A DNA stretch of 64,000 nucleotides from a virus (taxonomy: Duplodnaviria; Caudoviricetes). Numbering within the stretch: the stretch's first letter is position 1; the number at the start of each line of letters is the position of its first letter. A program made the position numbers and the translations under genes. Below the pieces are notes generated by a model. It ran no database searches. It was not told the origin of the DNA and saw only the letters and a list, made by a program, of their open reading frames with translations. The stretch is taken from positions 1 through 64,000 of the IMG/VR virus record IMGVR_UViG_3300014208_000026; one strand, written 5' to 3'. Shown here piece after piece: positions 13,198 through 54,679 of this stretch.

Positions 13198-13224
13198 TTT
13201 CATTTCACTCGACCTCGGTGTATA
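13197..13224 (+). promoter_or_regulatory. class I promoter
   Basis: GTTTCATT-N12-GGTGTATA. Confidence 0.82.
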
Positions 13225-13246
13225 TAGTGGGCGAGGGAGATGAAAA

Positions 13247-13864: not shown

Positions 13865-13878
13865 AAATCACGCTCCGT

Positions 13879-13892
13879 TTTTCTGCTTATAG
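13879..13892 (+). promoter_or_regulatory. class III motif TTTTC-N3-TTATAG
   Basis: Similar motifs at 31127 and 62242, each ahead of genes with linker motifs. Confidence 0.5.
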
Positions 13893-13928
13893 TTTCCGGT
13901 AGGCAGAGTACCTTTCCTGGTGTCTGCC

Positions 13929-15191: not shown

Positions 15192-15196
15192 AGATT

Positions 15197-17340: not shown

Positions 17341-17343
17341 AAC

Positions 17344-18234: not shown

Positions 18235-18237
18235 AAA

Positions 18238-27043: not shown

Positions 27044-27853
27044 TTAATTCCCTTGCCATCTCACCGTGTGAATTTTATCACAGTCAGCTTCTGAGAAGCT
27101 GAACTCCAGGATTGTCCCTATCGACAGATCACTGGCGTCTATAGTAGAGTCTAGAATATCGTCTTCAGCTCCAATTGCATATGCCTTGACATAGTTAATG
27201 CCCTGCAAACCGCCCATAACTTCGAAGTTGAGAACACAGCCCTTTCCGCGAAAACCAGGGCGACTCCCTCTAGAGGCCAATTCAAGAGGTGTCGCCGTAG
27301 GAGTCACTACCTTGTCCCCACGAGAGTCTTCTAACAATTGTGCATCACGCGCAAGCGCGTCGCCGCCTGACCACACGTCAGGCAGCTTCTCCAAGCACTC
27401 AAGGGGGCTCAGGGAGTCGACCATACGGTCAATCATGACGCCGCCCAGAGAAAGCCCAAGAGCAGCAAACGGGCTCTCGTTTTGCATCAAGCGCTGAGTG
27501 AGCTTACGCTGCAGGGACCCCTTCAAAACCCCGCAGGGCGTAGCACTCCCGAACAGAACCAGGAAAGTTGTCGGAGGAACCACGACGAAGACGCTCGCTA
27601 ACACAATAGCGATTCGGGTGATTGAGGACTGACGGCGCCACCATGACTGTTCGGTTCCGGTTTGGGTTCTGATTAGCATGCTCACATCCTTTCTCATGTT
27701 CTTGATCTGTGGAGTGACCATTCGGAGTGCCCATAGAGCAAAGGCCACTGTCAGAAGTACTCCTATGATACCGAAGGTTTCTGGGACAAGGAGGCCGAGC
27801 GCAATAGTCAGGCACACGATCCCGAATCCTACCAGCAAAGTGTTCCGGTTCAT
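27044..27853 (-). CDS. membrane protein
   Basis: Three hydrophobic segments; ATG at 27853. Confidence 0.6.
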   Translation of the reverse strand: MNRNTLLVGFGIVCLTIALGLLVPETFGIIGVLLTVAFALWALRMVTPQIKNMRKDVSMLIRTQTGTEQSWWRRQSSITRIAIVLASVFVVVPPTTFLVLFGSATPCGVLKGSLQRKLTQRLMQNESPFAALGLSLGGVMIDRMVDSLSPLECLEKLPDVWSGGDALARDAQLLEDSRGDKVVTPTATPLELASRGSRPGFRGKGCVLNFEVMGGLQGINYVKAYAIGAEDDILDSTIDASDLSIGTILEFSFSEADCDKIHTVRWQGN

Positions 27854-27858
27854 TGTGT

Positions 27859-28029
27859 TTACTCCGGCTGCTGGAGGCATATAGGGCAGATGGCTCTGCA
27901 AAGCTCTGACGTAGGGTCATTGAGCTTTGCGAGGGTCTCTGCAGGAATAGGAGCCCGTGCAAGAAGCACTAAGGCCAGCAGGATACCCGCCACCGCAAAT
28001 ACTGTCCGCAGGGTCCGGTTCATCTCCAT
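27859..28029 (-). CDS. 56-aa membrane-anchored or secreted peptide with CxxxCxxC (not in ORF track)
   Basis: MEMNRTLRTVFAVAGILLALVLLARAP...LCRAICPICLQQPE; first gene after a class I promoter. Confidence 0.55.
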   Translation of the reverse strand: MEMNRTLRTVFAVAGILLALVLLARAPIPAETLAKLNDPTSELCRAICPICLQQPE

Positions 28030-28066
28030 TCTCCTTCCCAGGGCATCATCGCCCTTGCATTTACTG

Positions 28067-28094
28067 TATACACCATCGGGAGAGGGAATGAAAC
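28067..28094 (-). promoter_or_regulatory. class I promoter
   Basis: GTTTCATT-N12-GGTGTATA. Confidence 0.82.
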
Positions 28095-28146
28095 TGAAAT
28101 CGAACGAGGGGAGGAGGGCAGAGAGGCGTCAGGGTTCCTGTGGGGG

Positions 28147-28578
28147 TTAATCCCCTTCCCACCCAGAATTAATTTCACAGGAGATACGGTGAGGGGGTTC
28201 TCCCCAACCAGAGATGGTGGCTAGTTCTCTTCCATCGAAGAAGTCTAGCGACGCTTGAATCTCTTGAGTTTTCCCTTCTGGGTCTTTTTCAGCAATCAGG
28301 CGTGGGGATTCGCTTCGGACCTTTTTCTCAAAGGCAAGTACGCGGGACAGGTCTTTCTGAACGAGGTGCCGAATCAGTATGTCCCGTCCGGTTTTTTGCT
28401 GTTCCTCAGTAACCCCTGGAGCAGCGAGCACTCGGGGGGTTCGGATTGCTTCATAGTAGGCTGTTCCGACAGTTTCATACGTCCCGTTCTGATGGGAGGG
28501 ATTCTTCGCTTTCTGTAGCTCATCCCTCCAGTAGTTCACGAGGTCTTCTTGGAAGTTTGCTTGAAAGGGTAGAGACAT
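28147..28578 (-). CDS. hypothetical protein
   Basis: 143-aa ORF. Confidence 0.55.
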   Translation of the reverse strand: MSLPFQANFQEDLVNYWRDELQKAKNPSHQNGTYETVGTAYYEAIRTPRVLAAPGVTEEQQKTGRDILIRHLVQKDLSRVLAFEKKVRSESPRLIAEKDPEGKTQEIQASLDFFDGRELATISGWGEPPHRISCEINSGWEGD

Positions 28579-28727
28579 CTTTTCAAAACAGATAGTGGGT
28601 ACCCCGATACAATACCCGAACGCGAGGGTTACCTAAAGGTCGAATGACCAGGAACCCCCCTTTCTCCCGAACATACCCTATGCAAGAGGGGTTTCTGCCA
28701 TATATATTCTCAGAGTACAGATTTATG

Positions 28728-28756
28728 TTGACAACTGCACCTAGCCACCATATATT
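28728..28756 (+). promoter_or_regulatory. sigma70 promoter TTGACA-N17-TATATT
   Basis: Near-consensus, in an AT-rich intergenic region. Confidence 0.75.
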
Positions 28757-28783
28757 ACATCGTATGGGGGCTAGGAGGTGCCT

Positions 28784-28885
28784 GTGAGGAATTTCGTTTT
28801 CGGTATGCTGACGACTCTGGTGGTTTTAAAGTTCATAAAAGAGGTCGAAAATCTGAGGAGTCGGGTTTATAAGATGTCTTCATAA
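28784..28885 (+). CDS. 33-aa single-helix peptide (not in ORF track)
   Basis: GGAGG RBS and GTG start; MRNFVFGMLTTLVVLKFIKEVENLRSRVYKMSS. Confidence 0.55.
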   Translation: MRNFVFGMLTTLVVLKFIKEVENLRSRVYKMSS

Positions 28886-28921
28886 TCTTGTCCCCAGAAG
28901 GTTCCCGGATATCTTTTACCC

Positions 28922-29176
28922 TCAGTCAACCGGCTCGTTCACGGACTTCTGCACCAGTCTCCAGGCACACTTGTAAGCCGCTGCTTTTGCGGCGCCCAAG
29001 TTCATCGGGCCGCCCTCTCCTACGCTGTCCTCATAGCGGTCGCTGGTCGTCACGTACCACTTCCAGCCGAGGAAATTGAAATGGACGACACAGTCGTAGG
29101 CACCTATCGTTCTCGTGTAGGTTTTGTCGAAAGGCGCTTTGGCGTGATGCTCATGTACCGTCCACTCTCGGTTCAT
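28922..29176 (-). CDS. hypothetical protein
   Basis: 84-aa ORF adjacent to the nucleotidyltransferase. Confidence 0.5.
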   Translation of the reverse strand: MNREWTVHEHHAKAPFDKTYTRTIGAYDCVVHFNFLGWKWYVTTSDRYEDSVGEGGPMNLGAAKAAAYKCAWRLVQKSVNEPVD

Positions 29177-29179
29177 TAC

Positions 29180-30280
29180 CTACAGTTTCCCCTTCAACGC
29201 TTCGCCCATCATCTCGATGCACAACTCCCGAATCTTCGTTCGCTGAGGCTCCTTCGGGAGCGGGCAATTTCCGGCGTTGTAGAGAGCCGCGATCTTCGTT
29301 TCCATCCCCTCGGCCCACTCAATCAGCTTGTCGTAGGCCCAGCGACCCTCGCGGACTTCGAGAATCTCCTCCCTGTCAATCCCCCCACGCCAAACGTGAA
29401 CCTGCCCCGTCTCCATGATTTCGGTTCCCATCTTCATGAGGCGGACAAGGTGACCGGCGTTCTTGGCATCATAACCACATTTAGCCTCTAGCTCCGAACG
29501 GACCTGATTCCGCGTGACAAGCCACTCCTCGTACCCGCGGTAGTCCTTCAGAGCCAGGGCGTACTTCACCTCTTGCTTGAGAAGATTCAACCCCTCCTCG
29601 GAGATCCCCAAAACTTCCAGGGCCTCAGCCGAGAGCGTAGAGATGGTGTTCGCCTTCTCGTACCGGATCGTCGAGAACATTTCGCTCGCGACCCCCAAGT
29701 CCGTCAGGGTCCGGTCCGTGAGGTTCATCAGGGATATCAACTGCCCTGCCTTCACGGTCTTGTGGTGCTCAGGGAGCCCGAACTCGGCCCGAGTTGGCTT
29801 GTGGTCGGGGTAGTTGCCAAACAGGAACGCACGGTGCCGCTTCATCCTCTGCAACTGCGAGACAGCATAGCCCGTGAACGTGAAACGAGCCTTCGTCGAC
29901 AAGAAGAGGTCGCGGTTCTCCCGCAGCTTCCTGCCCAGCGGCGTGCAGATCCGCACCTCCTCTTCACGGCAATACAGCAAGTCGAGGATGTTCGGGTTAT
30001 TCTCCGTCGCCAGAGAAATGAACTTCATGAGCCCGTAGACAACCCCCTCTAGTTTCGTCTCCGTCGCGACCTTGATCTCTGCCGGATAGAGAAATCCCAG
30101 ATAGGGGGACACGTCCTCGGTCTGGTCGAACCTGTCGAAGGGGCAGAAAAAGGTTCGCTCCTCAGGCACGAGAATGCCCTTCAGGTCAACGTCAGACCCT
30201 GGACGGTGAATCCCATAGGCCCGAGAGCCAGCGATGGTTAGGAGAATGGTCTTGGTCTCTTTGAAGTTGGGTCCGGGCAT
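29180..30280 (-). CDS. Pol-beta-superfamily nucleotidyltransferase (RlaP/YcgL-like)
   Basis: IAGSRAYG...SDVDLKG, NNPNILDLL and YDAKNAGHLVRL. Confidence 0.8.
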   Translation of the reverse strand: MPGPNFKETKTILLTIAGSRAYGIHRPGSDVDLKGILVPEERTFFCPFDRFDQTEDVSPYLGFLYPAEIKVATETKLEGVVYGLMKFISLATENNPNILDLLYCREEEVRICTPLGRKLRENRDLFLSTKARFTFTGYAVSQLQRMKRHRAFLFGNYPDHKPTRAEFGLPEHHKTVKAGQLISLMNLTDRTLTDLGVASEMFSTIRYEKANTISTLSAEALEVLGISEEGLNLLKQEVKYALALKDYRGYEEWLVTRNQVRSELEAKCGYDAKNAGHLVRLMKMGTEIMETGQVHVWRGGIDREEILEVREGRWAYDKLIEWAEGMETKIAALYNAGNCPLPKEPQRTKIRELCIEMMGEALKGKL

Positions 30281-30287
30281 TTTCAGT

Positions 30288-30662
30288 CTACTCCTTCAGC
30301 AAGTCGTCGACGGACTCCAGAAGTTCTTCCATGTTCTGCAAGTGTACCACGCGATGTCCACGATACCACGGCAGAGCCGGAGGCTTTCCCGTGGAATCCA
30401 CCGTCCTGGACTTCTGGTTTTGGTACACTTCGTCCGACACAAGGCAACAGAGGCCGATTTTGATCGCCACGTCCAGAACTGCGGCCCGATGTTCGTGACT
30501 CCAAGAGTCCTTCTCGTCGCAGTCCTCGTAGGCCGCTGCAAAGGCGTCTACCACGTCTTGCTCCCCGTCCCGCTCCCAAACGTAGTCTTCAAGGACGCGA
30601 AGCAGCGTAGGGGGTGCCTTGGCCCGAATTAGGGCCTCTATGCTGGCACGGGAAGGTTTCAT
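30288..30662 (-). CDS. hypothetical protein
   Basis: 124-aa coupled ORF. Confidence 0.55.
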   Translation of the reverse strand: MKPSRASIEALIRAKAPPTLLRVLEDYVWERDGEQDVVDAFAAAYEDCDEKDSWSHEHRAAVLDVAIKIGLCCLVSDEVYQNQKSRTVDSTGKPPALPWYRGHRVVHLQNMEELLESVDDLLKE

Positions 30663-31039
30663 TCCTTCACCGCTCCTTGTGTCTTGTCCAACGCCTCGAT
30701 CACGGCGGCCAGAACTTCATCGGGCTGCTCATACCATACCGTGTCCCGAAGGCGGTGGATACTTTCCCGCCGGAACTTCTCGGTCTTTTCCTCTTGCAGG
30801 ATTTCGGCTTCCTCTTCTGCCGTGATCATGCGGATGAAACGGGGACTCTTGAAACCGCTTTCCCCCACCTTGTAACCTCGGATGGTGTAAGGTTCTTCCG
30901 CTTCCCCGGGCCCATCCATGAGAACACGAATCTGAGTCTTGCCGACCTTCTTGATGGTCCCGAACGTCCATGTAGGATGGAACCCACCGCGATTCTGTAC
31001 CACGCGCCCGTTCAACAGCCAGTCCGATTTCCAGTCCAT
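30659..31039 (-). CDS. hypothetical protein
   Basis: First gene after a class I promoter. Confidence 0.6.
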   Translation of the reverse strand: MDWKSDWLLNGRVVQNRGGFHPTWTFGTIKKVGKTQIRVLMDGPGEAEEPYTIRGYKVGESGFKSPRFIRMITAEEEAEILQEEKTEKFRRESIHRLRDTVWYEQPDEVLAAVIEALDKTQGAVKE

Positions 31040-31074
31040 GATCCTAGTCTCCCTGAATCAAGTCTCTAATCCTC

Positions 31075-31102
31075 TATACACCGACCCACCCTAAAATGAA
31101 AC
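31075..31102 (-). promoter_or_regulatory. class I promoter
   Basis: GTTTCATT-N12-GGTGTATA. Confidence 0.82.
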
Positions 31103-31126
31103 CAGAATCGACCCGCCCTCCCACAA

Positions 31127-31140
31127 TTTTCCGGCTATAG
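31127..31140 (+). promoter_or_regulatory. class III motif TTTTC-N3-CTATAG
   Basis: Matches the 13879 and 62242 motifs. Confidence 0.5.
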
Positions 31141-31180
31141 GTTCCTTTCAAGTAGGGAATATGAACGAGGCTACCCCGCT

Positions 31181-32275
31181 ATGAGCACGATTCAGGATCT
31201 TCAAGTACTGACCGCGCACCTCCACAAGCTGAAGAGGCAGGCTTCGGCCAATCCGAGGTCAATCCATCTAAGGGTAGCAGCCCAGTTCATGGACCAGTCC
31301 CTCATGAAGCAGCTTGATATGGTTGCTCGCCTTCAAGTCCTTGAGGGCGTGGCAGGGGTGTCTGAGGGCCTTTGGTCCAACAAGAGCCCTGTGTCAGGCC
31401 TCGCGTCAGCCAAGAAGCACTTTATCGAGAAGCCCATCTCTGAGGAGTGGTTCCTCCCCAAGGACACGGGGCTCTACAAGAGGGCGGCTTTCACCTTCGC
31501 GAAGGTCTTGGACAAGATCAACACCACCTCTACAGAGGAACTTCTTCAAGGGCTCATGGCAGGCGTGGGTCCCTCAGGTGAGAAGGTGGATCGGATGTTC
31601 AACGCCATCGGGGAATTCCTCAAGGACCGTATCCTCAGCGGTAAGGCTACGATCATCGAAGCAGCCAACCGAGCAGCGGAGTTCGTCAGGCGTCGAGCTT
31701 GGGGGGTGTTGAAGAGTCTAAAGACGGAGAAGCACTCCGGTCCAGGTAACAGGGGTGAATGGAACGTGAACAAGCCCATCCTCCATGTGCCAGATAATGA
31801 GGACCACCCTAAGGGTCAGAACGGTCGAACGGATGTAGCTACCTTTGAGGGCATGGGGGCTAGTACTCAGCAGGATATCCTCTCCCATATCATGGACGAT
31901 GCAGCGGACCCTGAGATGGTCCAGATCCGTACAGCTATCCTCCAAGCCCTCCTGAAACGGGCTAAGACCGAACTCCAGCAGACCATCATTCGGGAACTGC
32001 TTGACACTCTCTCGGATAACGAGATATCTAAGGGGCGTGTTCGCTACGAGGTAGCTGAGCGGACAGGGGTGACCTATGCTTACGTTCGACAGCTAGAGGA
32101 CAAGATGCTCTCCGTAGTCCCCAAGATCATCGCCAACGATCCTCACCTCCAGAAGCTCATCAACAGAGTGCTCGACCGTTCTGAGATCGAAGCCATGACC
32201 TCCGGCTACAAGACAGCCAAGAAAAGATCCTTGGCTTTCCAGCGGATCACTGCCTCCGATCCAGTTCCCTTCTAA
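31181..32275 (+). CDS. sigma-factor-like / C-terminal HTH protein with terminal linker motifs
   Basis: AAEFVRRRAWGVLK; HTH RYEVAERTGVTYAYVRQLEDK; N-terminal KRQAS...RVAAQF. Confidence 0.5.
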   Translation: MSTIQDLQVLTAHLHKLKRQASANPRSIHLRVAAQFMDQSLMKQLDMVARLQVLEGVAGVSEGLWSNKSPVSGLASAKKHFIEKPISEEWFLPKDTGLYKRAAFTFAKVLDKINTTSTEELLQGLMAGVGPSGEKVDRMFNAIGEFLKDRILSGKATIIEAANRAAEFVRRRAWGVLKSLKTEKHSGPGNRGEWNVNKPILHVPDNEDHPKGQNGRTDVATFEGMGASTQQDILSHIMDDAADPEMVQIRTAILQALLKRAKTELQQTIIRELLDTLSDNEISKGRVRYEVAERTGVTYAYVRQLEDKMLSVVPKIIANDPHLQKLINRVLDRSEIEAMTSGYKTAKKRSLAFQRITASDPVPF

Positions 32276-32282
32276 TTTCTTC

Positions 32283-32311
32283 TTGACAGCATCCCAGGTT
32301 CCCGCTATAAA
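32283..32311 (+). promoter_or_regulatory. sigma70 promoter TTGACA-N17-TATAAA
   Basis: Near-consensus; no ORF downstream. Confidence 0.75.
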
Positions 32312-32317
32312 GGGGCT

Positions 32318-32525
32318 TGTGTCTATTTGTTCTTTGAGCGTGGTCCTCCTGAGCTGTTCTCCCCGAGGCTTACACGGGAGACTTGAGGAGGTCCAAGAGA
32401 TTGGGACAGAAGCCGTTGCGACTCTCCTTTAACGAGGGGGAGGTTCGGACTGGGAACCTTGATGTAGGACCCAGTATGCTGAGGGATCGCTGTCCACGCT
32501 CAAACAGTACCCATGATGGGGTACG
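32318..32525 (+). ncRNA. candidate structured ncRNA of about 200 nt
   Basis: 11-bp closing stem 32333-32343/32494-32504 enclosing several hairpins, then a GTACCC/GGGTAC hairpin. Confidence 0.6.
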
Positions 32526-32607
32526 GGTTCTTTGACATAAAAGGATTCCCCCGTAGCAAATCTCCCTAACCCAAAAGGTGGGAGGTGGCTCGGAGCCGAC
32601 TAAGACG

Positions 32608-32823
32608 GATCCCCTGAGCAGAGATCCTCCGGCAGCCGAGTAAGTCCCGAGTGGTGAGACCTAAGAAAGCGTCCCTTACGTAAGTAGAGGACAGGTTGAA
32701 GACCCACTAACCCCTGAGAACAGATCCTCTAGAACATAGGTTCAGGATCTCTCAGGATCCTAAGGCCCTAGGATCTTAGGTTCTTGAACCCTCAGATCGG
32801 GATCTCAAAATTCAGAAGTGATC
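32608..32823. repeat. GATC cluster and iteron-like repeats (candidate origin)
   Basis: 9 GATC in 216 bp; CCCCTGAGnAnAGATCCTC at 32611 and 32711. Confidence 0.65.
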
Positions 32824-32923
32824 TAAGAGTCCGTGTTCGAGTCCTGATGCTGGTTCTAAGGATGCTGGTGCTGATGGTCTGAGTCCTGGTCTGAGTCCTG
32901 GTGATGATGGTCCTAAGGGTTCT
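32822..32923 (+). repeat. period-3 NNT low-complexity tract, left part
   Basis: cct gat gct ggt tct ... gct gat ggt ... cct ggt gat gat ggt. Confidence 0.6.
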
Positions 32924-33018
32924 CAACAGTCCCCATAGGTAGCCTATAATGTGCCCTGATTGGTAACATTTAACCCGGGTGAAAGAGTCAGCGTTCATTT
33001 CGGGTCTCCGAAGTGGAT

Positions 33019-33047
33019 TTGACTCCCTCCAATATTTCCCCTATACT
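33019..33047 (+). promoter_or_regulatory. sigma70 promoter TTGACT-N17-TATACT for tnpB
   Basis: Followed by GGAGG RBS and ATG at 33072. Confidence 0.75.
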
Positions 33048-33071
33048 TCCCCTTAGTGGAGGCTCGATTTC

Positions 33072-34496
33072 ATGAAGTCCAAGAAGTCGCGATTCTTTTT
33101 TCTCCACCCAGACACCAACCCCATTAAGCGCTCAAAGGTCGAGGATCTCTACGCCGAGTTTCTATCCTATCGTACCCTCTGTGTCAAGACCCTTCTGGGG
33201 AATCGAAAGCTCAGCCTCTCCCGTAAGGAGATGAAAGCCTTTTTCCCGGGATCTGACGTCCTCACTTCCCAAATCCAAAAGAACGCTCAGGATGAAGCAG
33301 TGGTTACCGTCAGGTCTTGGGCTGCTGCAACTTACTCTCGTAAGATCAAAAAACAGATAACTTTGTTAAAGAAAGAGGGAGCAATAACAGAGGATGAGGC
33401 TCGACAACTTTACGCCGTGGGTAAGTACTCCGTAAGTAAACCCTCAGCTACTATCTCTCAAGAAGCAATCGACTTTTACTGGGATCTGTTGGATACCTTT
33501 GGCGGTAAGAAACCCGAGGTCCGTTATGGATCCCCCATGTACCTCACGGAGATGACCTCTAAACTAACGGATCCAGAAGAGACGATTATAGCTGACTATT
33601 GGTTGAAAATTTCTACTCTTGAACCAAGAAAAACAGTTTGGTTACCGTTAGTCGGGAATCCTTACGTAGCTCATGCCGATGAAGTCTCCAAGACGATTCA
33701 GTGTCAACCGACAACGAACGGTCGTTGGCGGTTCATGGTCGTAGAGAAAAAGGAATACGAGATCCCTGAGGTTGATCTGGATGCTCCTAGGTTGGGTTTA
33801 GACGTAGGATTAAACGTCCTGGCAGCTACCTCTTCGGGAGACTTGTACGGGGAGGACGTTAAGCCCAAATTCGACAAGAAATGGGAACAAATCAAGAAAC
33901 TTAGGGCTAACCGCCAGAGGCAAGGGCTCAAAGAAGATTCTCTCAGGTTGAAAACCCTGGAGTCGAAGCTGTCGGGGTTAGTTAAAACAGAGACCGGACG
34001 AATAGTTAACCTGCTTGTAGCTAAGCATCCTGGAACGGTCTTTGTCCTTGAGGACCTCGACCTTTCCGGATGCGCAGGCCAGAAACGGTTTGCTTACAGA
34101 GCACTCCAGCACAGCCTTGAGACCAAGGCTCCCTGTATAAAGATCAATCCTGCGTATACTTCGCAGGAATGTCCCTCCTGCGGCTATATCTCGCGTAAGA
34201 ATCGCACGGGGACGAAGTTCCATTGTCGCTTTTGCGGACGTGTCGCGCATGCTGACTGGGTCGGCTCAACTGGTATCCTGAGACGTTCTCAAGATGTCGA
34301 GATCAGTTTAGCCATGGATCCAGAAAGCGTGAAAGAGGTGCTGATCGGTAGATTCCTTCTTGCACAAAGAGGGATTCACCTATCGGGATTTCTTCGGAAC
34401 GAAAAGGAGCCCCCACCGTTGGGCCCCGGGCTTACTACCGAGGGATCTGGGTTAAGCCTAGACGTCGGCACAGCTCTAGAGTCAAGACCTATTTAA
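33072..34496 (+). mobile_element. tnpB: TnpB RNA-guided endonuclease (IS200/IS605-type, no tnpA in window)
   Basis: RuvC LGLDVG, VLEDL and HAD; YTSQECPSCG...FHCRFC zinc ribbon. Confidence 0.9.
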
Positions 34497-34507
34497 GTAG
34501 GTCTTGA
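34482..34507 (+). other. perfect 10-bp hairpin, probable right end / reRNA terminus of the TnpB element
   Basis: TCAAGACCTA-TTTAAG-TAGGTCTTGA overlapping the tnpB stop. Confidence 0.65.
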
Positions 34508-34512
34508 TGAAC

Positions 34513-34620
34513 GGTGCTGATGTTGAGAGTGCTGGTTCAAGTTCAAGTCCTGATGCTAGTGCTGGTCCTGTAGGTAGTAAAGAAGCTGTACTGGTTCCTT
34601 CGGATGGTGAGTGCTGGATC
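34513..34620 (+). repeat. period-3 NNT low-complexity tract, right part
   Basis: Shares AGTCCTGATGCT and GGTGCTGATG with the tract left of tnpB. Confidence 0.6.
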
Positions 34621-34729
34621 CTGGTTCTTTGAAATCCTGGTGAACGGATCCTCTCAAAGAGACAGATCCGTTCCTGAGCCTATAGAACTCCCTCTGGTAG
34701 AGGGACGAACAGAAAAGAAGCTCAGGAAC

Positions 34730-35068
34730 ATGAACCTCTCAGAGAATCTAGCTCTCGCCTGTTTGTACGTGATGGGGGGTAGAGCCCAACCGTTCTTCCC
34801 AGGGACAGATCGCTGTGCCCCCTCCTTCATCGTAAGGGTGTTACTAACCCTTCCCGCTCCCTATAGGGAATCGGATCGGTGTAGGTTCCCCATGGATATC
34901 AAATGGGATCTATGGGAACTGATGGTGCCTCTGATAGAATCTGAAACATACAGTCCTAAGCTTCCTGTGAACCAACACCTGTTAAGAGCCACGGATTTCG
35001 ATCAGCTAGTCCTCTTGATGACGGGTAGAGTCGAGGAGGCTCTAAGAGAAGCTGGAAGGATCCCATAA
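34730..35068 (+). CDS. hypothetical protein
   Basis: ATG at 34730 in ORF 34604-35068. Confidence 0.4.
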   Translation: MNLSENLALACLYVMGGRAQPFFPGTDRCAPSFIVRVLLTLPAPYRESDRCRFPMDIKWDLWELMVPLIESETYSPKLPVNQHLLRATDFDQLVLLMTGRVEEALREAGRIP

Positions 35069-35073
35069 AGAAA

Positions 35074-35280
35074 ATGGCTGAACAAAGAAAGCTTACCATT
35101 GCCAAGGACAAAACTCCCGTTTGGATCCACTGTCGAGCTAGGAAGACCTGCCCAGGGAACATGGCGGAACCGGTGTTCGACCAAGAGTCCCCGGGAGGGG
35201 GTGGGATCGTGAAGCGATACCGCTGTCTCACCTGTAAAGGGACTTTCCACATTACTGTAGGGTCCCAGTTCAAGGGCTGA
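35074..35280 (+). CDS. small zinc-ribbon protein
   Basis: CRARKTC...YRCLTC. Confidence 0.6.
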   Translation: MAEQRKLTIAKDKTPVWIHCRARKTCPGNMAEPVFDQESPGGGGIVKRYRCLTCKGTFHITVGSQFKG

Positions 35281-35288
35281 TCTCGCTG

Positions 35289-35299
35289 GATCGGGTATA
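35289..35299 (+). promoter_or_regulatory. class II motif GATCGGGTATA
   Basis: One of 5 RATMGRGTATA copies ahead of replication genes. Confidence 0.65.
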
Positions 35300-35338
35300 T
35301 AAGAGGACTAGGAATCCTGTCGGGAGCCCTGTCCTCAA

Positions 35339-35995
35339 ATGCCACGACTCAGTTCTCTCCTCTACTATGGTCCAGGTGCCAGGGACAAGGCCATCGAAGA
35401 AGCCCTGTCGAGAGGCAGGCTCCTGTGCCCCCCGATCGGGGATCAAGGACTAAAGGTGGATGATGCGAGAGCCGTCGCAGAACTCCTGCAAGGCTCCGCT
35501 GTAGGGGATGCTCTCGGGGCTGTAGTGATCGGCCCTATGGACTGGGCCTCCAAAGAAGCACCTGACGTATTGCTGAAGTCTATAGAAGACACCTCAGAGT
35601 GGGTCTACCCCGTCCTGTGGGCTTTCGACATCGGAGAGGTAAGGGATACCATTATCTCCCGCTGTCTGGCCCACTGGGCCCCCGCAGAAGACGGTAAATG
35701 GGATCTGAACCAAAGGTCGGAACGGGTTGCTAACACCCTGTTGGAGTCCATCAAGGATAACGACACCATGACCGTCCTGACGATCGTCCGGGATCTCATG
35801 AAGAAAGACGCCAAGGATAAAGAACGGGAAGAGGACCACGATATCGGGGTCGAGCTGCTGGTCTCCCTGGTTCAAAGGTTGGACCCCGAGCGTACTGAGG
35901 ACTTGGAACTCTGGTTGCGGATTCGGAGGGCTATGAGGGTGTCTCACCCCTCCCCTGCCGAGATCCTAGATGCTCTCCTACCTGCGGTTAAATAG
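35339..35995 (+). CDS. holB: DNA Pol III delta'-like clamp-loader subunit (short)
   Basis: LKVDDAR, LLKSIED and TIISRC; no functional Walker A. Confidence 0.7.
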   Translation: MPRLSSLLYYGPGARDKAIEEALSRGRLLCPPIGDQGLKVDDARAVAELLQGSAVGDALGAVVIGPMDWASKEAPDVLLKSIEDTSEWVYPVLWAFDIGEVRDTIISRCLAHWAPAEDGKWDLNQRSERVANTLLESIKDNDTMTVLTIVRDLMKKDAKDKEREEDHDIGVELLVSLVQRLDPERTEDLELWLRIRRAMRVSHPSPAEILDALLPAVK

Positions 35996-36007
35996 TGAGG
36001 TCACTCC

Positions 36008-37003
36008 ATGGCTAAGTCCCTCCAGATTTTCTACGGGTCGAACACCTACCTGCGGGATCGGAACTGCCGAGAGGCTTTGTTCAAGGCCAGGAAGGCAGGC
36101 TATGAGGTGAACGAGGTAGCTGGGGATGATGTGATCGGGTTGGCGGCTCAACTCTCGGGCATTTCCGATCTCTTCGGGACGGGAAAGCCAAAGAAGAAGC
36201 TGGTCTATATTAACGACGAGGATAGCAAGCTGCTTTTAGCTCCTGTGAAGCGGTACCTGGAGGATGACACCACGACCGGTTTCATGCTCATTAAAGGCCC
36301 TGCGAAGCCGAAGGCCAAGTCGGGTTTGGCTCAGTTGATCCTGGAGCACCCCAAGCAGGCTCGGGAGTTTGTTGCCCCTCCTCCCTATAAGGCGGAGGAT
36401 GAAGCCATTCAGTTCAGCATCCATGAAGCCGGACTCCATTCCAAGAACATGACCCAGAAGACGGCGGCGGCTTTGGTCAAGGTGATCGGCACCGACCTGG
36501 TGATGCTCGCCTTTGAGATCATGAAGGCCAGCCTGTACCTGGATTCCCTCGGGGACAAGAACGAGATCACGGTCGAGTCCCTCCGGAAGACCTGGGCCCC
36601 GTTCGCTGAGGTAGAGGTGTTCCCGCTGGCGAATGCCCTCATCGACAAGGGAGCTAAGGAAGTTGCTCTCCTCCTGCGACGCATCGAAGACACTCACTCG
36701 GAGGATGCAAGCGGTCGGACCATCAAGGTGTGTAGACAGGTTGGGTCGAACATCATGACCTGGATGTCCATCCTCCACCTGCATGAACTGGGGGTTCGTC
36801 CGAAGGACGCCGCCGAGCGGATGGGGATGAACGCCTACCGCTATGAAAAAATTCTCCTGCCTGAAGCCAAGAAGGCCGGGAAAGTTTTTCTTCGAAAAGT
36901 CCTCGGGGTGCTTGCAGAATCCGAGAAAGGGGTCCGGAGAGGCGAGTTGAACCCCTGGATCGGACTGCAAACGCGCATCCTTCGGATGTTACTGAGAGAT
37001 TGA
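36008..37003 (+). CDS. holA: DNA Pol III delta-like clamp-loader subunit
   Basis: GTDLVMLAFEIMKASLY, VFPLANAL and ESEKGVRRG; typical size. Confidence 0.72.
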   Translation: MAKSLQIFYGSNTYLRDRNCREALFKARKAGYEVNEVAGDDVIGLAAQLSGISDLFGTGKPKKKLVYINDEDSKLLLAPVKRYLEDDTTTGFMLIKGPAKPKAKSGLAQLILEHPKQAREFVAPPPYKAEDEAIQFSIHEAGLHSKNMTQKTAAALVKVIGTDLVMLAFEIMKASLYLDSLGDKNEITVESLRKTWAPFAEVEVFPLANALIDKGAKEVALLLRRIEDTHSEDASGRTIKVCRQVGSNIMTWMSILHLHELGVRPKDAAERMGMNAYRYEKILLPEAKKAGKVFLRKVLGVLAESEKGVRRGELNPWIGLQTRILRMLLRD

Positions 37004-37140
37004 GATTCTGGAGGTAAAAAGCCTTGTTTTGCCAGGGCTCGTAGAGGCCGGGGCGGTACAGTAATAAGGCTATCGCGCTCGCTTAGAGGGTCGGATGTTT
37101 GTGGCCGACCCTCCCTGTCATAACCGCTTCGGAGCAAAGC

Positions 37141-40100
37141 ATGTTTGTCGGCGCCCAGCAGGATCGAAAAGTTCGCATCTTCTCCCTCAAGCCCGAGTTT
37201 GTTGCTCAGTACAAGGACAAGCAGCCGCCTTGGGGTCCTTTGGGATATTTCGTGTATAAGAGGACCTACAGTAGGCCTTTGTTTGCTAATAATCCTGATG
37301 GACCAACAGAAGAGTGGTATCAGACCTGTCAGAGAGTTGTAGAGGGTGTTTACAACATTCAGAAGCATCACTGTAGGGGCATGGGTCTGGAGTGGAAAGA
37401 AGAGAAGGCTCAGATTTCAGCCAAAGAGATGTATGACCGTATGTTCAACTTCAAGTTCCTTCCCCCTGGACGCGGTTTGTGGTCCATGGGTACGGATGCA
37501 GTAATGATCAAGGGCGGGGCAATTTTGAACAATTGTTTCGCAGGAGAGACAGAGATCCTCACTGCCGATGGGGTGAAGAAGATCAGAGACGTCGCTGGAA
37601 CCATACAGACTCTTCTGGTCCATGACGGGACGTGGGCCGAAGCCCCTGTCCGGTCGTTCGGTATTCAGAAGCTGGTCAAACTTACCGTGGAGAGAGGGGG
37701 GGCCTATAAGACTGTTTTCTGTACTGCGAATCATCGGTGGTTAGTGAGTGTTGATCCCACCTACCCAATCTGCAACATTAGTCATTATGGGTCGCCTGTG
37801 GTACTGAATGGTATTGAGGCACGAGAGGTTGAGACCACGCTGCTTGCCGAAGGGGTTCCTCTTTACAGCGTACTCCCCGGAGTTGGGGTAGGGCCTGACG
37901 TTGAACCTTGGTTCGTAGTCAGTGTAAAGGAAACGGGTCGCGAAGAAGAAGTGTTCTGCGCTACCGTCCCTCAGTACGGAAACTTCACTCTGGCAGATGG
38001 TTTACTCACGGGAAATTGCGGGTTCACGTCGACCGAAAACATCAAAGAAGACTTTGCCGATCCTTTCACGTTTCTGATGGATATGTCGATGCTGGGCGTC
38101 GGAGTCGGCGGGGATATGCTCGGGGCAGGGAAGGTGAAGATCCTTACCCCCAGGATCAAGGACGAGACTTTCGTAGTGGAGGACAGTCGCGAAGGCTGGG
38201 TCGAGCTGGTCGGGACGGTGTTGAACAGCTTTGTCCACAAGGGCTACATGCCTGCCAACATCGACTACACGAAGGTTCGTCCTCGTGGGGCGCCGCTCAA
38301 GGGCTTCGGTGGAACCGCTTCGGGTCCGGGGCCTTTGATGGATCTCATTGACAGTATTAAGAAGGTTCTCACGCCTCCGGAAGGTGTGGAGTCCTATTGG
38401 ATCACCTCACGACACATTTCAGATATCATCAACATGATTGGGCGGTGTGTTGTAGCTGGCGGGATCCGCAGAAGTTCCACTATTTTGTTCGGGGATCCTG
38501 CCGACGAAGAGTTCCAGAATCTCAAGGACCCGACTGAGCGCGATGCTCTTCGACGGGAATTGACCCTTCTGCGTGAGACGGAAGCAAGCAAAGTCCCCTC
38601 CGTGCGAAGTCTGCGGGACTCTATCGAGACGCTGGCGGCACAAGAGCGGAACGCTTGGTTCCTGCCGCTTCAGGAAGAAGTCCAGAAGTGCATGGAGGGA
38701 GGGAACCATACAAAGGCAACCGAACTCCTGAAGAAGAAGCAGCCGGAAGAGACTGTTCGGCTGCGGGAGTTGCGGGCGGAACTGAAGCGTCTCGTGAAGG
38801 AAGAATCGGATAAATCAACTTCCGTTCAGGAACTTGAGGGGAGGTTGTACTCTCTCCCCCTGGAGGCGTGGCGTTGGTCGAGTAACAACAGCCTCGTGGC
38901 TACTGTGGGAATGGACTACACGAAGGCGGCAGAGTCCATCGCTAAGAACGGAGAGCCTGGACTGTTCTGGTTGGACAACGCTCGGGCTTTCTCTCGCATG
39001 GGTCGAAAGCCCGACTGGAAGGACAAGCGGGCCAAGGGTTGCAATCCCTGTTTTGCTGGGGACACCTTGATTGCTGTCGCGGATGGTCGAGGGGCTGTTC
39101 CTATCAAGGATTTGGCAGAGACTGGAAACGACGTTCCGGTCTATGCTATGAATCCTGAGACTGGAGAGGTGGCTGTTCAGCGTGCGTGGCGTCCCAGGAA
39201 GACTCGTTCGGGTGCAGAACTTCTGGAGATCCAGTTCGAGGGAGGCGGATCTCTGCGGGTTACCCCCGATCACGGGATGCTCACTATGGACGGGAGGAAG
39301 ATTCCGGCCAGTGAGATCCGGCAGGGGTTCATGGTTCCGTATTCCCAGGAAGACCTTCGTGTAGAGCACCCTTTTGAGACTTTCGAGTGCGACAGTGTTG
39401 TCAAGCCCTGTGAAGTGTGCGGGAGAGCCCTGGAGGTTCCTTTTGGCCGTCGTGAGGAGTCTTGTTGTTCCCCTGAGTGTTTCGACAAGCTGGCCGCTCG
39501 GGAACAGCAGGGGAAGGTGTGGGGTGAGGGGGTAGAGGCACGCAGGGTGTCCGCTGTAGTGAAAGTCCGAGAGTTGGAGGATGTGTACAATCTGACTGTC
39601 AAAGACTTTCATACTGTGGGCATTGCTCTAGACAACAATGTTAGTTGTTGTTCTATTGTTTTTACGGAAAATTGCAGCGAGCAAACGCTGAACTCGATGG
39701 AATTATGTACCCTTGTTGAGACTTTCCCTGCTAACCATGATTCTTTTGATGACTTTGCCAAGACATTGAAGTTCGCATATCTCTATGCAAAGACCGTAAC
39801 TCTTGTCATGACACACAATCAAAAGACGAACAATGTTATGGCTCACAACCGTCGTATTGGTTGTTCGATGTCTGGCATTGTGCAGGCCGTGCATAAGCAT
39901 GGGCGTTCGGAGTTTAGAAATTGGTGTAAGGAAGGCTATAAGGAACTGTTGAGGTGGGACGAAACATATAGTGAATGGCTTGGAATACCTAAAAGCATAA
40001 AGATAACGTCTGTCAAACCCTCGGGCACAGTTTCGCTGCTCTGCAATGCTACTCCTGGTATCCATTTCCCCCACAGTCAGTTCTACATTCGTAATATCCG

Positions 40101-41970
40101 TGTACAGAATACCTCTCCCCTGGTTCAACTGTACAGGGATGCGGGCTATCCTGTCGAGAAGGACCGCGGGGCTCCGGACACCAGCGTGATTTCTTTCCCT
40201 GTGGAGGAGCCGAACTTCTGGAAGTCCAAGTCCGACGTTTCTATGTGGGAGCAACTGGCTCTGGTTGAGGACCTTCAGTGGTATTGGGCCGATAATCAGG
40301 TGTCCTGTCTGACAGGGAGCACCCTGGTTAGAACTAGCCAGGGTTGGCTCAGGATGTCCGAGTTGTCTAATTCTATGTTTGGGGAGGACCGCCCAGTTGG
40401 GGCTTATCCTTACTCGGGACCCTTGCAAGCACTCAACGCCGACAATGAGTGGTCTCCGATTTCCGCTCTGGTAGTGAATGAGCCTAAGCCTTTGGTGCGG
40501 GTGGTATGTGAAGGGGGGCAGATTCTTACCGGTACTCCTGAGCACCAGCTTCGGGTGATCGGTCCGGATTTGGAATTTCAGTGGAAGCCTTTGAGTGAGA
40601 TAGGGGTTAACGACTATCTCGTAGAGGTGATCAACCATAAGGGTTACAACTCCACGAACCAGATCGTTCAGCGTAGGTTAGAGAAGTTCCAGTTCTCCGG
40701 AAGGTCGGATGCAGACCGTAATTTCAAGGCTCCTACGTGCATGACAAGAGAATTGGGTGAGCTTTTGGGCTTCATAGTCTCTGATGGGCATATTCACCTA
40801 AGCACAGACCAGGGATTCGGTCTGACTCAGAGATCTTCTGCGACTGCTGTTGTAGACAGGTTTCACGAAATAGTTCCTGAGTTGTTCGGTTCAAAGGTCT
40901 GTACAATTGTTAATGCCCGATTTAACAAGGAGGACCCCGTTCTGTCTCTCGCTGTTAATTCTAAAAAGGGAGCTTTGTGGTTAAGGTGGTTGGGTGTATA
41001 CGACGAGAAAAAGCTGAAACGAGTGCCTTGGCCTGTTATGATGGCTGGAGAAGGGGTTATTAAGGCTTTTTTGCGCGGGGTTACCCTTGACGGGCATTTC
41101 TCTAATACTAATGGGCGTATTTACGTCATGACAACTAACTCTTATAAATTAGCGGAAGAATTGTGTGTGTTACTTAAGCATGTAGGTTTTCAGCCAGCTC
41201 TTTTACCAGCACAGGGCACTGATCACACCATGAAGTCTCCTTATAACGGTAAGGTTTACAACTGTGACCCCACTTGGACTGTCTCTCTGTCTACTGCACA
41301 GTCTGCCCGTTTCATGAGAATGATCGGTTTCGCTGAGGATCACAAGAATGAGGCTTATGCGGAACGCGGGGATAAGCATCGGCACAATCTGTTTGGTGGA
41401 GTTCCCGATTTTGGTCTCAGGGACCGGATGCGGACTCTTGAACATCGGTGTCAGAGTCGTTTCTTGAATGACCATTGGCACGGGGCTTCTTGTCATCCTG
41501 ATAAGGAAGTTTCGAGGGAAACCCTTCTTCAAATGAGGGATATGGGAGAAAGCATTCCGGAGAAACTGCTTCAGGACGATTTTGTGTTCCGTCGTGTTCT
41601 TGCGGTGGAGCCTGCAGAACCCGAAGTGACGTATGATCTCACTGTGACAAATGGGCACAGCTATATTGCGAATGGTTTTGCCTCGCACAACTGCACTGTA
41701 ACTTTCAAACCCGAGGAAGCCAAGGACATCAAGTCGGCTCTCGAAACCTACGAAACCCGTTTGAAGTCCGTGTCTTTCCTGCCTCTCAGGGACCACGGCT
41801 ACGACCAAGCCCCCTACATCGAGATCGACGAGGCTACCTACCGCCAGATGGTGGCTGCAATCAGCCCTGTCGACCTCTCTGTACTTGGCCATGACCAGGA
41901 GGATAAGGGGTGTGACGGGGAAGCTTGCCTCATCAAAGCCCAGGCTATGGCCGCTGAGCAGTCTGCTTAG
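37141..41970 (+). CDS. nrdJ: class II (B12-dependent) ribonucleotide reductase with three inteins
   Basis: FLPPGRGLW, N|CGF, GGIRRS, GEPG, NP|CSEQ, VKPSGTVS and C-terminal GCDGEAC. Confidence 0.92.
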   Translation: MFVGAQQDRKVRIFSLKPEFVAQYKDKQPPWGPLGYFVYKRTYSRPLFANNPDGPTEEWYQTCQRVVEGVYNIQKHHCRGMGLEWKEEKAQISAKEMYDRMFNFKFLPPGRGLWSMGTDAVMIKGGAILNNCFAGETEILTADGVKKIRDVAGTIQTLLVHDGTWAEAPVRSFGIQKLVKLTVERGGAYKTVFCTANHRWLVSVDPTYPICNISHYGSPVVLNGIEAREVETTLLAEGVPLYSVLPGVGVGPDVEPWFVVSVKETGREEEVFCATVPQYGNFTLADGLLTGNCGFTSTENIKEDFADPFTFLMDMSMLGVGVGGDMLGAGKVKILTPRIKDETFVVEDSREGWVELVGTVLNSFVHKGYMPANIDYTKVRPRGAPLKGFGGTASGPGPLMDLIDSIKKVLTPPEGVESYWITSRHISDIINMIGRCVVAGGIRRSSTILFGDPADEEFQNLKDPTERDALRRELTLLRETEASKVPSVRSLRDSIETLAAQERNAWFLPLQEEVQKCMEGGNHTKATELLKKKQPEETVRLRELRAELKRLVKEESDKSTSVQELEGRLYSLPLEAWRWSSNNSLVATVGMDYTKAAESIAKNGEPGLFWLDNARAFSRMGRKPDWKDKRAKGCNPCFAGDTLIAVADGRGAVPIKDLAETGNDVPVYAMNPETGEVAVQRAWRPRKTRSGAELLEIQFEGGGSLRVTPDHGMLTMDGRKIPASEIRQGFMVPYSQEDLRVEHPFETFECDSVVKPCEVCGRALEVPFGRREESCCSPECFDKLAAREQQGKVWGEGVEARRVSAVVKVRELEDVYNLTVKDFHTVGIALDNNVSCCSIVFTENCSEQTLNSMELCTLVETFPANHDSFDDFAKTLKFAYLYAKTVTLVMTHNQKTNNVMAHNRRIGCSMSGIVQAVHKHGRSEFRNWCKEGYKELLRWDETYSEWLGIPKSIKITSVKPSGTVSLLCNATPGIHFPHSQFYIRNIRVQNTSPLVQLYRDAGYPVEKDRGAPDTSVISFPVEEPNFWKSKSDVSMWEQLALVEDLQWYWADNQVSCLTGSTLVRTSQGWLRMSELSNSMFGEDRPVGAYPYSGPLQALNADNEWSPISALVVNEPKPLVRVVCEGGQILTGTPEHQLRVIGPDLEFQWKPLSEIGVNDYLVEVINHKGYNSTNQIVQRRLEKFQFSGRSDADRNFKAPTCMTRELGELLGFIVSDGHIHLSTDQGFGLTQRSSATAVVDRFHEIVPELFGSKVCTIVNARFNKEDPVLSLAVNSKKGALWLRWLGVYDEKKLKRVPWPVMMAGEGVIKAFLRGVTLDGHFSNTNGRIYVMTTNSYKLAEELCVLLKHVGFQPALLPAQGTDHTMKSPYNGKVYNCDPTWTVSLSTAQSARFMRMIGFAEDHKNEAYAERGDKHRHNLFGGVPDFGLRDRMRTLEHRCQSRFLNDHWHGASCHPDKEVSRETLLQMRDMGESIPEKLLQDDFVFRRVLAVEPAEPEVTYDLTVTNGHSYIANGFASHNCTVTFKPEEAKDIKSALETYETRLKSVSFLPLRDHGYDQAPYIEIDEATYRQMVAAISPVDLSVLGHDQEDKGCDGEACLIKAQAMAAEQSA
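37534..38016 (+). mobile_element. mini-intein 1 in nrdJ, 161 aa
   Basis: CFAGETEIL ... GLLTGN before C. Confidence 0.88.
39049..39672 (+). mobile_element. mini-intein 2 in nrdJ, 208 aa, with internal Cys-rich domain
   Basis: CFAGDTLI, VTPDH ... VFTEN before C of NPC. Confidence 0.88.
40306..41691 (+). mobile_element. intein 3 in nrdJ with LAGLIDADG endonuclease, 462 aa
   Basis: CLTGSTLV, GTPEH, LLGFIVSDG, FLRGVTLDG ... FASHN before C. Confidence 0.92.
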
Positions 41971-41977
41971 AAGCCCA

Positions 41978-41988
41978 GATCGGGTATA
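41978..41988 (+). promoter_or_regulatory. class II motif GATCGGGTATA
   Basis: Upstream of recD2. Confidence 0.65.
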
Positions 41989-42019
41989 TAGACGCACGAC
42001 CTTTTGACAGAGGGCCTTT

Positions 42020-45734: not shown

Positions 45735-45740
45735 GGTATA
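45730..45740 (+). promoter_or_regulatory. class II motif GATAGGGTATA
   Basis: Upstream of 45775. Confidence 0.6.
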
Positions 45741-45774
45741 GTAGGGTCGTCACTGCTTTCTGCATGAGGCCCCT

Positions 45775-47112: not shown

Positions 47113-47155
47113 AAAATGACCCTGTTTGTCGTTTTCCCCGAAGAGACGGGACGCC

Positions 47156-47166
47156 GATAGAGTATA
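47156..47166 (+). promoter_or_regulatory. class II motif GATAGAGTATA
   Basis: Upstream of the SSB gene. Confidence 0.62.
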
Positions 47167-47249
47167 TATAAGATCGGCTGGTCAAGCGACCTGTGGGAAC
47201 CTGTCAAAGACCGAGCCGAGAACAACCACTGTGAGAAGAGGTAAAAGAG

Positions 47250-48023: not shown

Positions 48024-48047
48024 TCCCAGATTGCGAGGGGTCGAGAC

Positions 48048-48707: not shown

Positions 48708-48708
48708 C

Positions 48709-50067: not shown

Positions 50068-50081
50068 ATAGGGGGCCCTAA

Positions 50082-53732: not shown

Positions 53733-53734
53733 CG

Positions 53735-54673: not shown

Positions 54674-54679
54674 AGTATA
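54669..54679 (+). promoter_or_regulatory. class II motif AATAGAGTATA
   Basis: Upstream of the clamp operon. Confidence 0.6.

Follow-up and report, generated by a model that had tools for sequence, protein, structure and literature searches.

The window considered here comprises 64,000 nucleotides (nt), the first 64 kb of one 257,181-bp contig (54.8% GC) from a phage of the Caudoviricetes (IMG/VR record IMGVR_UViG_3300014208_000026). Its segment from 31 to 36 kb had been put forward in an earlier prediction, made from the letters of the sequence, as a candidate bidirectional origin of replication. In this segment, a gene for a sigma-factor-like protein is followed by a non-coding spacer of about 1.25 kb in total, which lies within 32276-35073 and is split by a TnpB unit. 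The spacer leads to the genes of a bacterial-type clamp loader and, further downstream, to a large replication and recombination module (Table 1).

Table 1. Features of the window around the change in strand composition (window positions; open reading frame, ORF; p3, third codon position).
Feature	Position	Strand	Remarks
Left arm, mixed-orientation accessory genes	1..31039		Plus strand C-/A-rich at p3; continues beyond position 1 in L059
Divergent intergenic region, 141 nt	31040..31180		Gene orientation changes from minus to plus; CTATA-type promoter-like motif
Sigma-factor-like protein, 364 aa, C-terminal helix-turn-helix	31181..32275	+	ESM Atlas neighbours; homolog in G002
Non-coding spacer part 1, candidate origin DNA	32276..32965		No ORF called; fourth longest gap in contig
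Promoter-like TTGACA-N17-TATAAA, rightward into ORF-free DNA	32283..32313	+	11/12 consensus positions, read in sequence
Candidate structured transcript of ~200 nt, 11-bp closing helix	32318..32535	+	Ends at terminator-like hairpin 32507-32524
GATC cluster, 9 sites, AGGATC/AGATCCT motifs and short inverted repeats	32608..32823		DNA fold z-score -1.5
19-mer pair	32611-32629 and 32711-32729	+	17/19 identical, 100 nt start to start
Low-complexity period-3 tract (CTGGTG/CTGATG-like)	32835..32930		Left flank of TnpB unit; direct-repeat families D1-D3
Solo TnpB/Cas12f-like gene, 474 aa	33072..34496	+	PF07282 E=3.8e-12; phrog_12300 'transposase' E=1e-27
Non-coding spacer part 2, hairpin AACGGATC...GATCCGTT	34497..35073		8 GATC
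Small Cys-rich (zinc-ribbon-like) ORF, 68 aa	35074..35280	+	Similar-sized ORFs at same place in relatives
Clamp-loader subunit, Pol III gamma/tau/delta'-like	35339..35995	+	PF13177 E=1e-5; profile versus PDB gamma/tau E=3e-6
Clamp-loader subunit, Pol III delta-like	36008..37003	+	Profile versus PDB 3zh9_B (B. subtilis delta) E=3e-28
Replication/recombination module, 'block B'	37099..57220	+	PHROG matches

The composition of the two strands changes at this place. The cumulative G-C excess has a flat floor at 31,250-33,750 with its global minimum at 33,288, followed by an unbroken rise to the end of the contig, and the cumulative keto excess reaches its minimum at 34,207. The original prediction had expected a minimum near 32-35 kb, which is where it lies, and the 60-nt spot counts it had quoted are exact (line 18541, G8/C20; line 43021, G24/C11). 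For a finer analysis, genes were called with a simple self-trained codon-usage model, and G-C skew was measured on the plus strand at p3, with plus-strand and minus-strand genes treated separately. Left of 32 kb, the skew is -0.09 for plus-strand and -0.03 for minus-strand genes; right of 32 kb, the respective values are +0.09 and +0.14 (left versus right, P=1e-6 for plus-strand and 2e-9 for minus-strand genes). Both at third positions and at four-fold sites, the arms differ inside each orientation class, the position effect being about +/-0.09 in either class. In a regression with an orientation term, the arm effect amounts to +/-0.087 and the orientation effect to only -0.026. In whole-gene skew the orientation term is about 0.03, and the raw skew partly tracks orientation.

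A single-split scan that includes the orientation term places the best step before position 36008, at the first gene with a clearly positive p3 skew, and splits as far left as 32.3 kb fit nearly as well. The residual drop at the best split is 159.5, compared with a maximum of 74 over 2000 permutations of the gene order, none of which reaches it (0/2000). In the left arm, each of the four 8-kb bins has an orientation-corrected p3 skew between -0.05 and -0.08, and the pooled p3 counts are 2921 G versus 3307 C (P=1e-6). The right-arm bins are positive with one exception and have a mean of about +0.11. The T-A skew at p3 flips in parallel, its position effect changing from -0.07 in the left arm to +0.17 in the right arm. 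On both sides, it is the strand running away from 31-36 kb that is G+T-rich. A G+T-rich leading strand is the classical pattern, as in bacteria.

Minus-strand genes on the right show normal coding signatures at the first and second codon positions, which marks them as real genes rather than shadow ORFs, yet their p3 skew is positive on the plus strand. Plus-strand genes of the left arm have a p3 skew of about -0.12 on their coding strand. Homologs in the related genome G001, co-oriented and located in a domain of positive skew, reach +0.06 to +0.14 in four of five cases, and both members of the fifth pair have a positive skew. The skew is set by the context and not by the gene, and the composition flip is independent of gene orientation.

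The gene layout itself is less regular than the original prediction had described. Its statement that most genes on the left are encoded on the minus strand is roughly right, but the left arm holds 19 minus-strand and 11 plus-strand genes and includes a plus-strand block of 11.5 kb (11677-23177). That every gene to the right is encoded on the plus strand holds inside the window with the exception of one or two small genes, but not for the remaining contig, in which 38 minus-strand genes form several blocks.

The composition step recurs at the syntenic site in relatives. The three large genomes used for comparison (LR745208.1, G001, and G002) were put together from fetched stretches. LR745208.1, an uncultured phage of 485 kb, is the nearest of all genomes in the phage collection, with protein identities of 29-57%. 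Its raw cumulative skew is lowest, over the whole genome, at 434-435 kb. The two breakpoints that an unbiased scan assigns to it fall at 433.3-436.2 kb and at ~205 kb and divide the genome into arms of 47:53, and the clamp-loader homologs at 436.2 and 438.1 kb lie directly downstream of the former. The IMG/VR copy of this genome is given in another rotation, with a completeness estimate of 92%. In G002 (536 kb, completeness estimate 100%), the breakpoint is located at 340.2-344.9 kb and the clamp loader at ~345.0 kb, and the genes upstream of the step are co-oriented with the clamp loader. The step is accompanied by a gap. All four of the seven lineages with a step (the present one, LR745208.1, G002, and, weakly, G003) have a low-GC non-coding gap of 1.2-2 kb before the clamp-loader operon, and in the three lineages without a step the gap is absent (G001, G005) or only 0.8 kb long (G004).

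Gene order around the gap is largely shared. A large protein, a small gene, a minus-strand gene of ~370 aa, the sigma-like gene, and the clamp loader follow each other in the same local order in G002 and G003, and the left-arm genes at 15-23 kb have the same order and strand relative to the clamp loader in G001. Block B is collinear with 436-459 kb of LR745208.1 and 403-426 kb of G001. Relative to its orientation in the present contig, G001, and G002, this 25-kb block is inverted in place in LR745208.1. The skew switch has remained at the upstream end of the block there, and blocks B and A, on opposite sides of the gap, have opposite polarity. A search of the region against the phage collection with blastn gave no match, and neither did single-protein scans of IMG/VR, whether with the two spacer-flanking proteins or with the relatives P0002 and P0008.

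The position of the flip within the contig has to be read with the nature of the contig in mind. IMG/VR lists the record as linear, its completeness is put at 49% by CheckV, and a metagenome contig of 1663 nt (L059) matches window positions 1-123 with 100% identity over 123 nt and runs 1540 nt further to the left, with more minus-strand ORFs. No similarity was found between L059 and the right end of the contig. For these reasons the contig is a fragment, the ends of which are assembly ends and not termini, and it represents about half of a genome that probably measures ~0.5 Mb. The short left arm and the skew maximum at the contig end are therefore uninformative on a terminus, and this lopsidedness is not to be curated as a biological property. 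A reading as a complete circle, with arms of 12:88 and a 'terminus' where the contig ends, was abandoned in view of the linear record, the completeness of 49%, and the extension by L059 that lacks a match at the right end. The inflection does not coincide with a genome terminus. There is also no sign of an assembly join, as three other genomes share the flanking gene order and TnpB is present in a single copy.

The floor of the cumulative skew falls into the first part of the spacer, which has a GC content of 0.52 and contains 10 GATC sites. A 154-aa ORF at 34604-35068 in the second part has no family match and is not supported by codon usage. The original prediction had counted nine GATC sites in 32608-32823; the count is correct, and this is the densest 216-nt window of the entire 257,181-bp contig. 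The mean is 1.08 sites per 216-nt window, which gives the cluster a Poisson probability of ~2e-6 per window and ~0.003 contig-wide, while the observed/expected ratio of GATC over the contig is 0.95. The 3 kb from position 32125 are the GATC-richest 3-kb stretch (38 sites versus ~15 expected). Within the spacer, GATC is enriched 2-3x and AGGATC occurs nine times versus 1.3 expected. The gaps of LR745208.1 and G002 show a 1.7-2x enrichment of GATC as well, and that of G003 shows none. The fragment encodes methylases of the beta class.

The repeats of the spacer are more modest than had been proposed. A 19-mer repeated 100 bp apart is indeed present with this spacing, but the two copies are not identical. 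No further copy occurs in the window, and none of 100 shuffles gave two matches. The term iteron cluster does not apply, as there is only this imperfect pair together with scattered AGGATC motifs and no regular array. Every gap examined has one pair of direct repeats of 15-19 nt. In the spacer of LR745208.1 (~435.25-435.37 kb; L001 35250-35370), two exact copies of GGGAGAGTGGATTGAAACA lie 105 nt apart; this pair parallels the present 19-mer pair, although the sequences are unrelated. The end of the LR745208.1 repeat, ATTGAAAC, resembles the ends of CRISPR (clustered regularly interspaced short palindromic repeats) repeats.

The spacer also contains elements that could serve transcription. The promoter-like element at its left end is omitted by a consensus promoter scan, the last base of its -10 hexamer being A. 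The candidate structured transcript downstream of it has no match in Rfam, and a search for Rfam families and tRNAs across the window found none. Folding of 243 nt gives a z-score of -1.74, and a 513-nt stretch scores -2.35 as the plus strand and -1.91 as the minus strand. A C-rich stretch followed by CTATA(A/T) recurs before several genes (31130-31150, 32300-32313, 33040-33050, 34855-34866, and 35290-35300) and probably marks a phage-specific class of promoters. A stretch of 19 nt within 31139-31157 is identical to a site at ~335.85 kb of LR745208.1.

The sigma-factor-like protein upstream of the spacer has no match in Pfam or PHROG. Its ESM Atlas neighbours bear Sigma70_r4/r2 (score 0.94), which is a lead only. 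In G002 (536 kb), a homolog is encoded at the corresponding position ahead of the spacer (L060:7280-8488; BLASTP E=6e-10).

The gene that splits the spacer encodes a TnpB-like protein that reaches 46.6 bits with PF07282 (cut-off 26.3) and bears the signatures of a Cas12f1-like TNB zinc ribbon and of OrfB_IS605. The unit extends over ~32965-34500, and a mobile unit of ~1.57 kb is common to the copies in LR745208.1 at 76-89% DNA identity. Three TnpB copies are found at other sites in LR745208.1 (45-46% identical) and one in G001 (53%), whereas the gene and its flanks are single-copy in the present contig. To judge by these copies, TnpB is a mobile passenger inserted within the spacer and not part of a conserved architecture. 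It resembles solo TnpB elements of the IS200/IS605 type in its signatures and in having several copies at unrelated sites in a relative; as a difference, no tnpA was seen, for which no dedicated test was made. Similar period-3 tracts with T at every third base flank TnpB directly (32835-32930 and 34500-34640), the left of which includes a tandem 12-mer at 32875-32902, and it looks as if the element had inserted into one such tract of ~240 nt. At the distal breakpoint of the inversion in LR745208.1 (460.3-462.2 kb; L002, L008), a full TnpB copy and a TnpB-like fragment are present, which suggests an insertion-sequence-associated rearrangement behind the inversion of block B. The orientation of TnpB was considered as a marker of fork direction and dropped, because the copies are too few and inconsistent.

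Downstream of the spacer, the presence of clamp-loader genes had been recognised correctly. The 331-aa delta-like family matches 3zh9_B across residues 5-325 and has 220 cluster representatives at E<=1e-10, and the 218-aa family matches gamma/tau; the Pfam matches of these proteins fall just short of the cut-off. The small Cys-rich ORF before them has no match in Pfam. Block B encodes a 1623-aa ribonucleotide reductase, a RecD/Dda-like helicase, a RuvC-like resolvase, a UvsX/RecA-like recombinase, SbcCD-like nucleases, a DNA methyltransferase, and a sliding-clamp-like protein. Among eight large downstream proteins, Pfam detected intein and homing-endonuclease domains only, and these interruptions hide the identities of the host proteins from Pfam. 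Several very long proteins carry Hint, Intein_splicing, and LAGLIDADG domains (G000 76628-79834, 103161-106475, and 109867-113667; L098, L099), and the ribonucleotide reductase (37099-41970) is probably interrupted in the same way. A 442-aa methyltransferase (phrog_67) is encoded at 51442-52770, 16 kb downstream, and its homolog in LR745208.1 lies between two clamp-loader genes. In LR745208.1, a DNA methyltransferase with a DPPF motif is also encoded directly to the left of the spacer (433.7-434.5 kb; L001 33681-34490).

Several explanations of the flip compete with an origin. One of them regards it as a by-product of gene orientation and codon choice, with G-rich coding strands diverging at 31040-31180, where the genes do diverge, and with the partial dependence of raw skew on orientation as its trace. 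This is highly improbable, and in its pure form it is ruled out by the third-position tests: the arms differ at p3 and at four-fold sites within each orientation class, the minus-strand genes on the right keep their normal coding signatures together with a plus-strand-positive p3 skew, the step in G002 falls between co-oriented genes, and four of the five compared homologous pairs change sign with the context. Scarcely any probability is given either to a rearrangement scar or mis-join, by which the left 32 kb would have been inverted or wrongly assembled via TnpB or the low-complexity tracts. A mobile TnpB and repeated low-complexity tracts do lie exactly in the flip zone, and LR745208.1 provides an example of an inversion with a TnpB copy at the far breakpoint. 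However, inversion of the left arm is ruled out by synteny with G001, G002, and G003, the actual inversion being that of block B in LR745208.1. As single-copy sequences, TnpB and its flanks offer no repeat that could mislead an assembler, and both flanking proteins, the clamp loader and the sigma-like protein, are also recorded on a contig of 280,628 bp.

The main rival explanation, unlikely and still to be taken seriously, is that the step is a domain boundary rather than a two-way origin. A long core domain, made up of block B and the structural genes, would start here that is subject to a one-way strand-biased process, which could be unidirectional or rolling-circle synthesis from the spacer or very heavy rightward transcription reading through embedded genes of the opposite strand, and the accessory DNA upstream would be unbiased or scrambled by rearrangement. 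The flat rather than mirrored second arm in LR745208.1 and G002, the rightward direction of the promoter-like elements in the spacer, and the uniformly positive G001, which corresponds to the 'unidirectional' type reported for ~30% of huge phages (PMC7162821), all fit this explanation. It is at odds with the left arm of the present contig, which is significantly reversed in all four 8-kb bins including the 11.5-kb plus-strand operon, and with the opposite polarity of blocks B and A on either side of the gap in LR745208.1; moreover, read-through transcription cannot yield a C-rich coding strand over a whole plus-strand operon. For the GATC/AGGATC cluster and the 19-mer pair, a role as transcription-control sites of the sigma-like or clamp-loader genes, or as parts of a non-coding RNA, is a tentative possibility and is compatible with an origin nearby or not. 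The cluster is situated among promoter-like elements at 32283, 32923, and 33019, it includes short inverted repeats typical of operators, and GATC is not enriched in the gap of G003. In contrast, its location on the skew floor as the densest GATC cluster of the contig and the recurrence of GATC enrichment in the gaps of two relatives argue against such a role.

A bidirectional replication origin in the spacer between the sigma-like gene and the clamp-loader operon, sending out forks in both directions, is the interpretation favoured here, with modest confidence. The orientation-independent flip of both G-C and T-A skew and its recurrence in two large relatives agree with the original prediction, but the flat second arm in these two does not. 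We infer that replication direction is the cause of the step and that replication is initiated in the spacer. According to this model, the origin DNA would be the ~1.25-kb non-coding spacer at 32276-35073, which would later have been split by the ~1.5-kb TnpB element. One fork would move to the right, first across the replication/recombination module and afterwards across at least 220 kb of core genes, and the other to the left across the accessory genes. Over time, the strand pointing away from the origin would gain G and T at freely variable sites. Initiation would not be driven by DnaA boxes. How it would proceed is a matter of speculation, with two candidates: a rightward transcript from the 32283-32313 promoter might act as opener or primer, or the GATC/AGGATC-rich 220 nt with the 19-mer pair might be a protein-binding or methylation-sensitive site.

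The proposed origin shares properties with several known types of origins. In E. coli, oriC contains a GATC cluster that is under the control of SeqA and Dam. Like a bacterial oriC, the present site lies at a minimum of the cumulative skew, is flanked on both sides by a G+T-rich leading strand, and has nine GATC in 216 nt, and it adjoins Pol III-type clamp-loader genes (delta and gamma/delta'-like). Transcript-activated origins include the R-loop origins oriF and oriG of T4, ColE1 with RNA II, and the primary origin of T7. With these, the site has in common a strong promoter-like element that points into ORF-free, foldable DNA and toward the strongly skewed arm, and with T4 in particular a similar downstream module (UvsX, gp46/47-like, Dda-like helicase, clamp, and clamp loader). 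The oriR of P1 has heptamer repeats that bear GATC and is grouped with the lambda ori among iteron- or methylation-dependent origins. Resembling these, the present spacer has five AGGATCT/AGATCCT heptamers with GATC together with the 19-mer pair within ~220 nt.

The same comparisons, together with those among relatives, also yield the points that weigh against an origin at this site. In contrast to a bacterial oriC, no DnaA box (TTATCCACA-like) with up to one mismatch is found in 31-36 kb, and boxes with up to two mismatches are at or below expectation in the spacer and in most gaps of the relatives. An AT-rich unwinding element was sought as well: in the spacer, even the 40-mers richest in AT reach no more than 60-62%, and the AT-richest 60-mer of the zone is located inside tnpB. 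An oriC-like reading, as in the original prediction, is not upheld by these results. No initiator gene could be identified at any gap, and neither a Rep-like gene nor dnaA was seen nearby, the genes adjoining the spacer being those for the sigma-like protein, TnpB, and the clamp loader. A Dam methylase of the D12 class was sought in the contig fragment and not found. In contrast to transcript-activated origins, the fold z-scores are modest, alike on both strands, and not strand-specific, and the spacer sequence is not conserved. P1 oriR and the lambda ori differ in their arrays: an iteron-type array of at least three similar, evenly spaced direct repeats of 17-22 bp beside a Rep- or O-type gene was not found in the zone, nor are there DnaA boxes. 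Neither Pol III alpha nor a family-B polymerase was found in the fragment, which thus lacks a recognised replicative polymerase. Block B encodes UvsX- and gp46/47-like proteins, and for this reason T4-style recombination-dependent replication is possible, which would blur any origin signal.

Further points of this kind come from the arms. The left arm is visible for only 32 kb, and the magnitude of its skew is about half of that of the right arm. In the two relatives with a clear step, the corrected skew of the second arm is close to zero (LR745208.1, +0.014; G002, -0.013), so that the pattern is strong versus flat and not a mirror image, and strict bidirectionality is not established for this reason. 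In G001 (497 kb, 94%), which has the same gene order as the present contig, the skew is uniformly positive and shows no step, with a p3 asymmetry of +0.07 and +0.13 for the two gene orientations. In place of a gap before the clamp loader, this genome has a 394-aa ORF of unknown family. The 40-kb fragment G003 shows a weak step with a negative zone of only ~9 kb. The spacer, searched with nhmmer and blastn against LR745208.1 and G001, gave no conserved sequence, and blastn among the gaps of the relatives gave none either.

A broader and decidedly speculative extension, to which little probability is attached, is that a clade of half-megabase phages shares a DnaA-independent cassette. This would consist of the sigma-like gene, a fast-evolving transcribed spacer with a ~19-nt pair ~100 nt apart and a GATC cluster, and the clamp-loader operon. 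A transcript from the promoter would open or prime the origin, methylation would time it, and gain or loss of the spacer would switch between two-way and one-way replication. The latter would account for the absence of both gap and step in G001.

To our knowledge, nothing is known experimentally about how replication is started in half-megabase phages, and published work says only that many of them show a bacterial-like skew. Among huge-phage genomes, ~30% have been reported to show a bidirectional-type skew and 30% a unidirectional one (Al-Shayeb et al. 2020, Nature 578:425; PMC7162821). The present case resembles those genomes in being an uncultured phage of >200 kb to which the same skew inference is applied, and its nearest relative is a record of the LR74xxxx type, but the portion of that paper considered here names no site or sequence element. 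As far as that portion goes, an origin inferred from skew is a known kind of feature that has not previously been mapped to the present site in these phages. What is added here is the control for gene orientation, the placement of the step in a specific spacer that precedes a Pol III-type clamp-loader operon, and the joint occurrence of spacer and step across relatives. The relatives raise the question of what makes one arm strongly biased and leaves the other flat, and of what lies behind the one-way pattern in a close relative that lacks the spacer. If the favoured interpretation is true, the origin of these phages would be a defined 1.2-kb spacer beside a Pol III-type clamp-loader operon, which would make it a concrete target for study.

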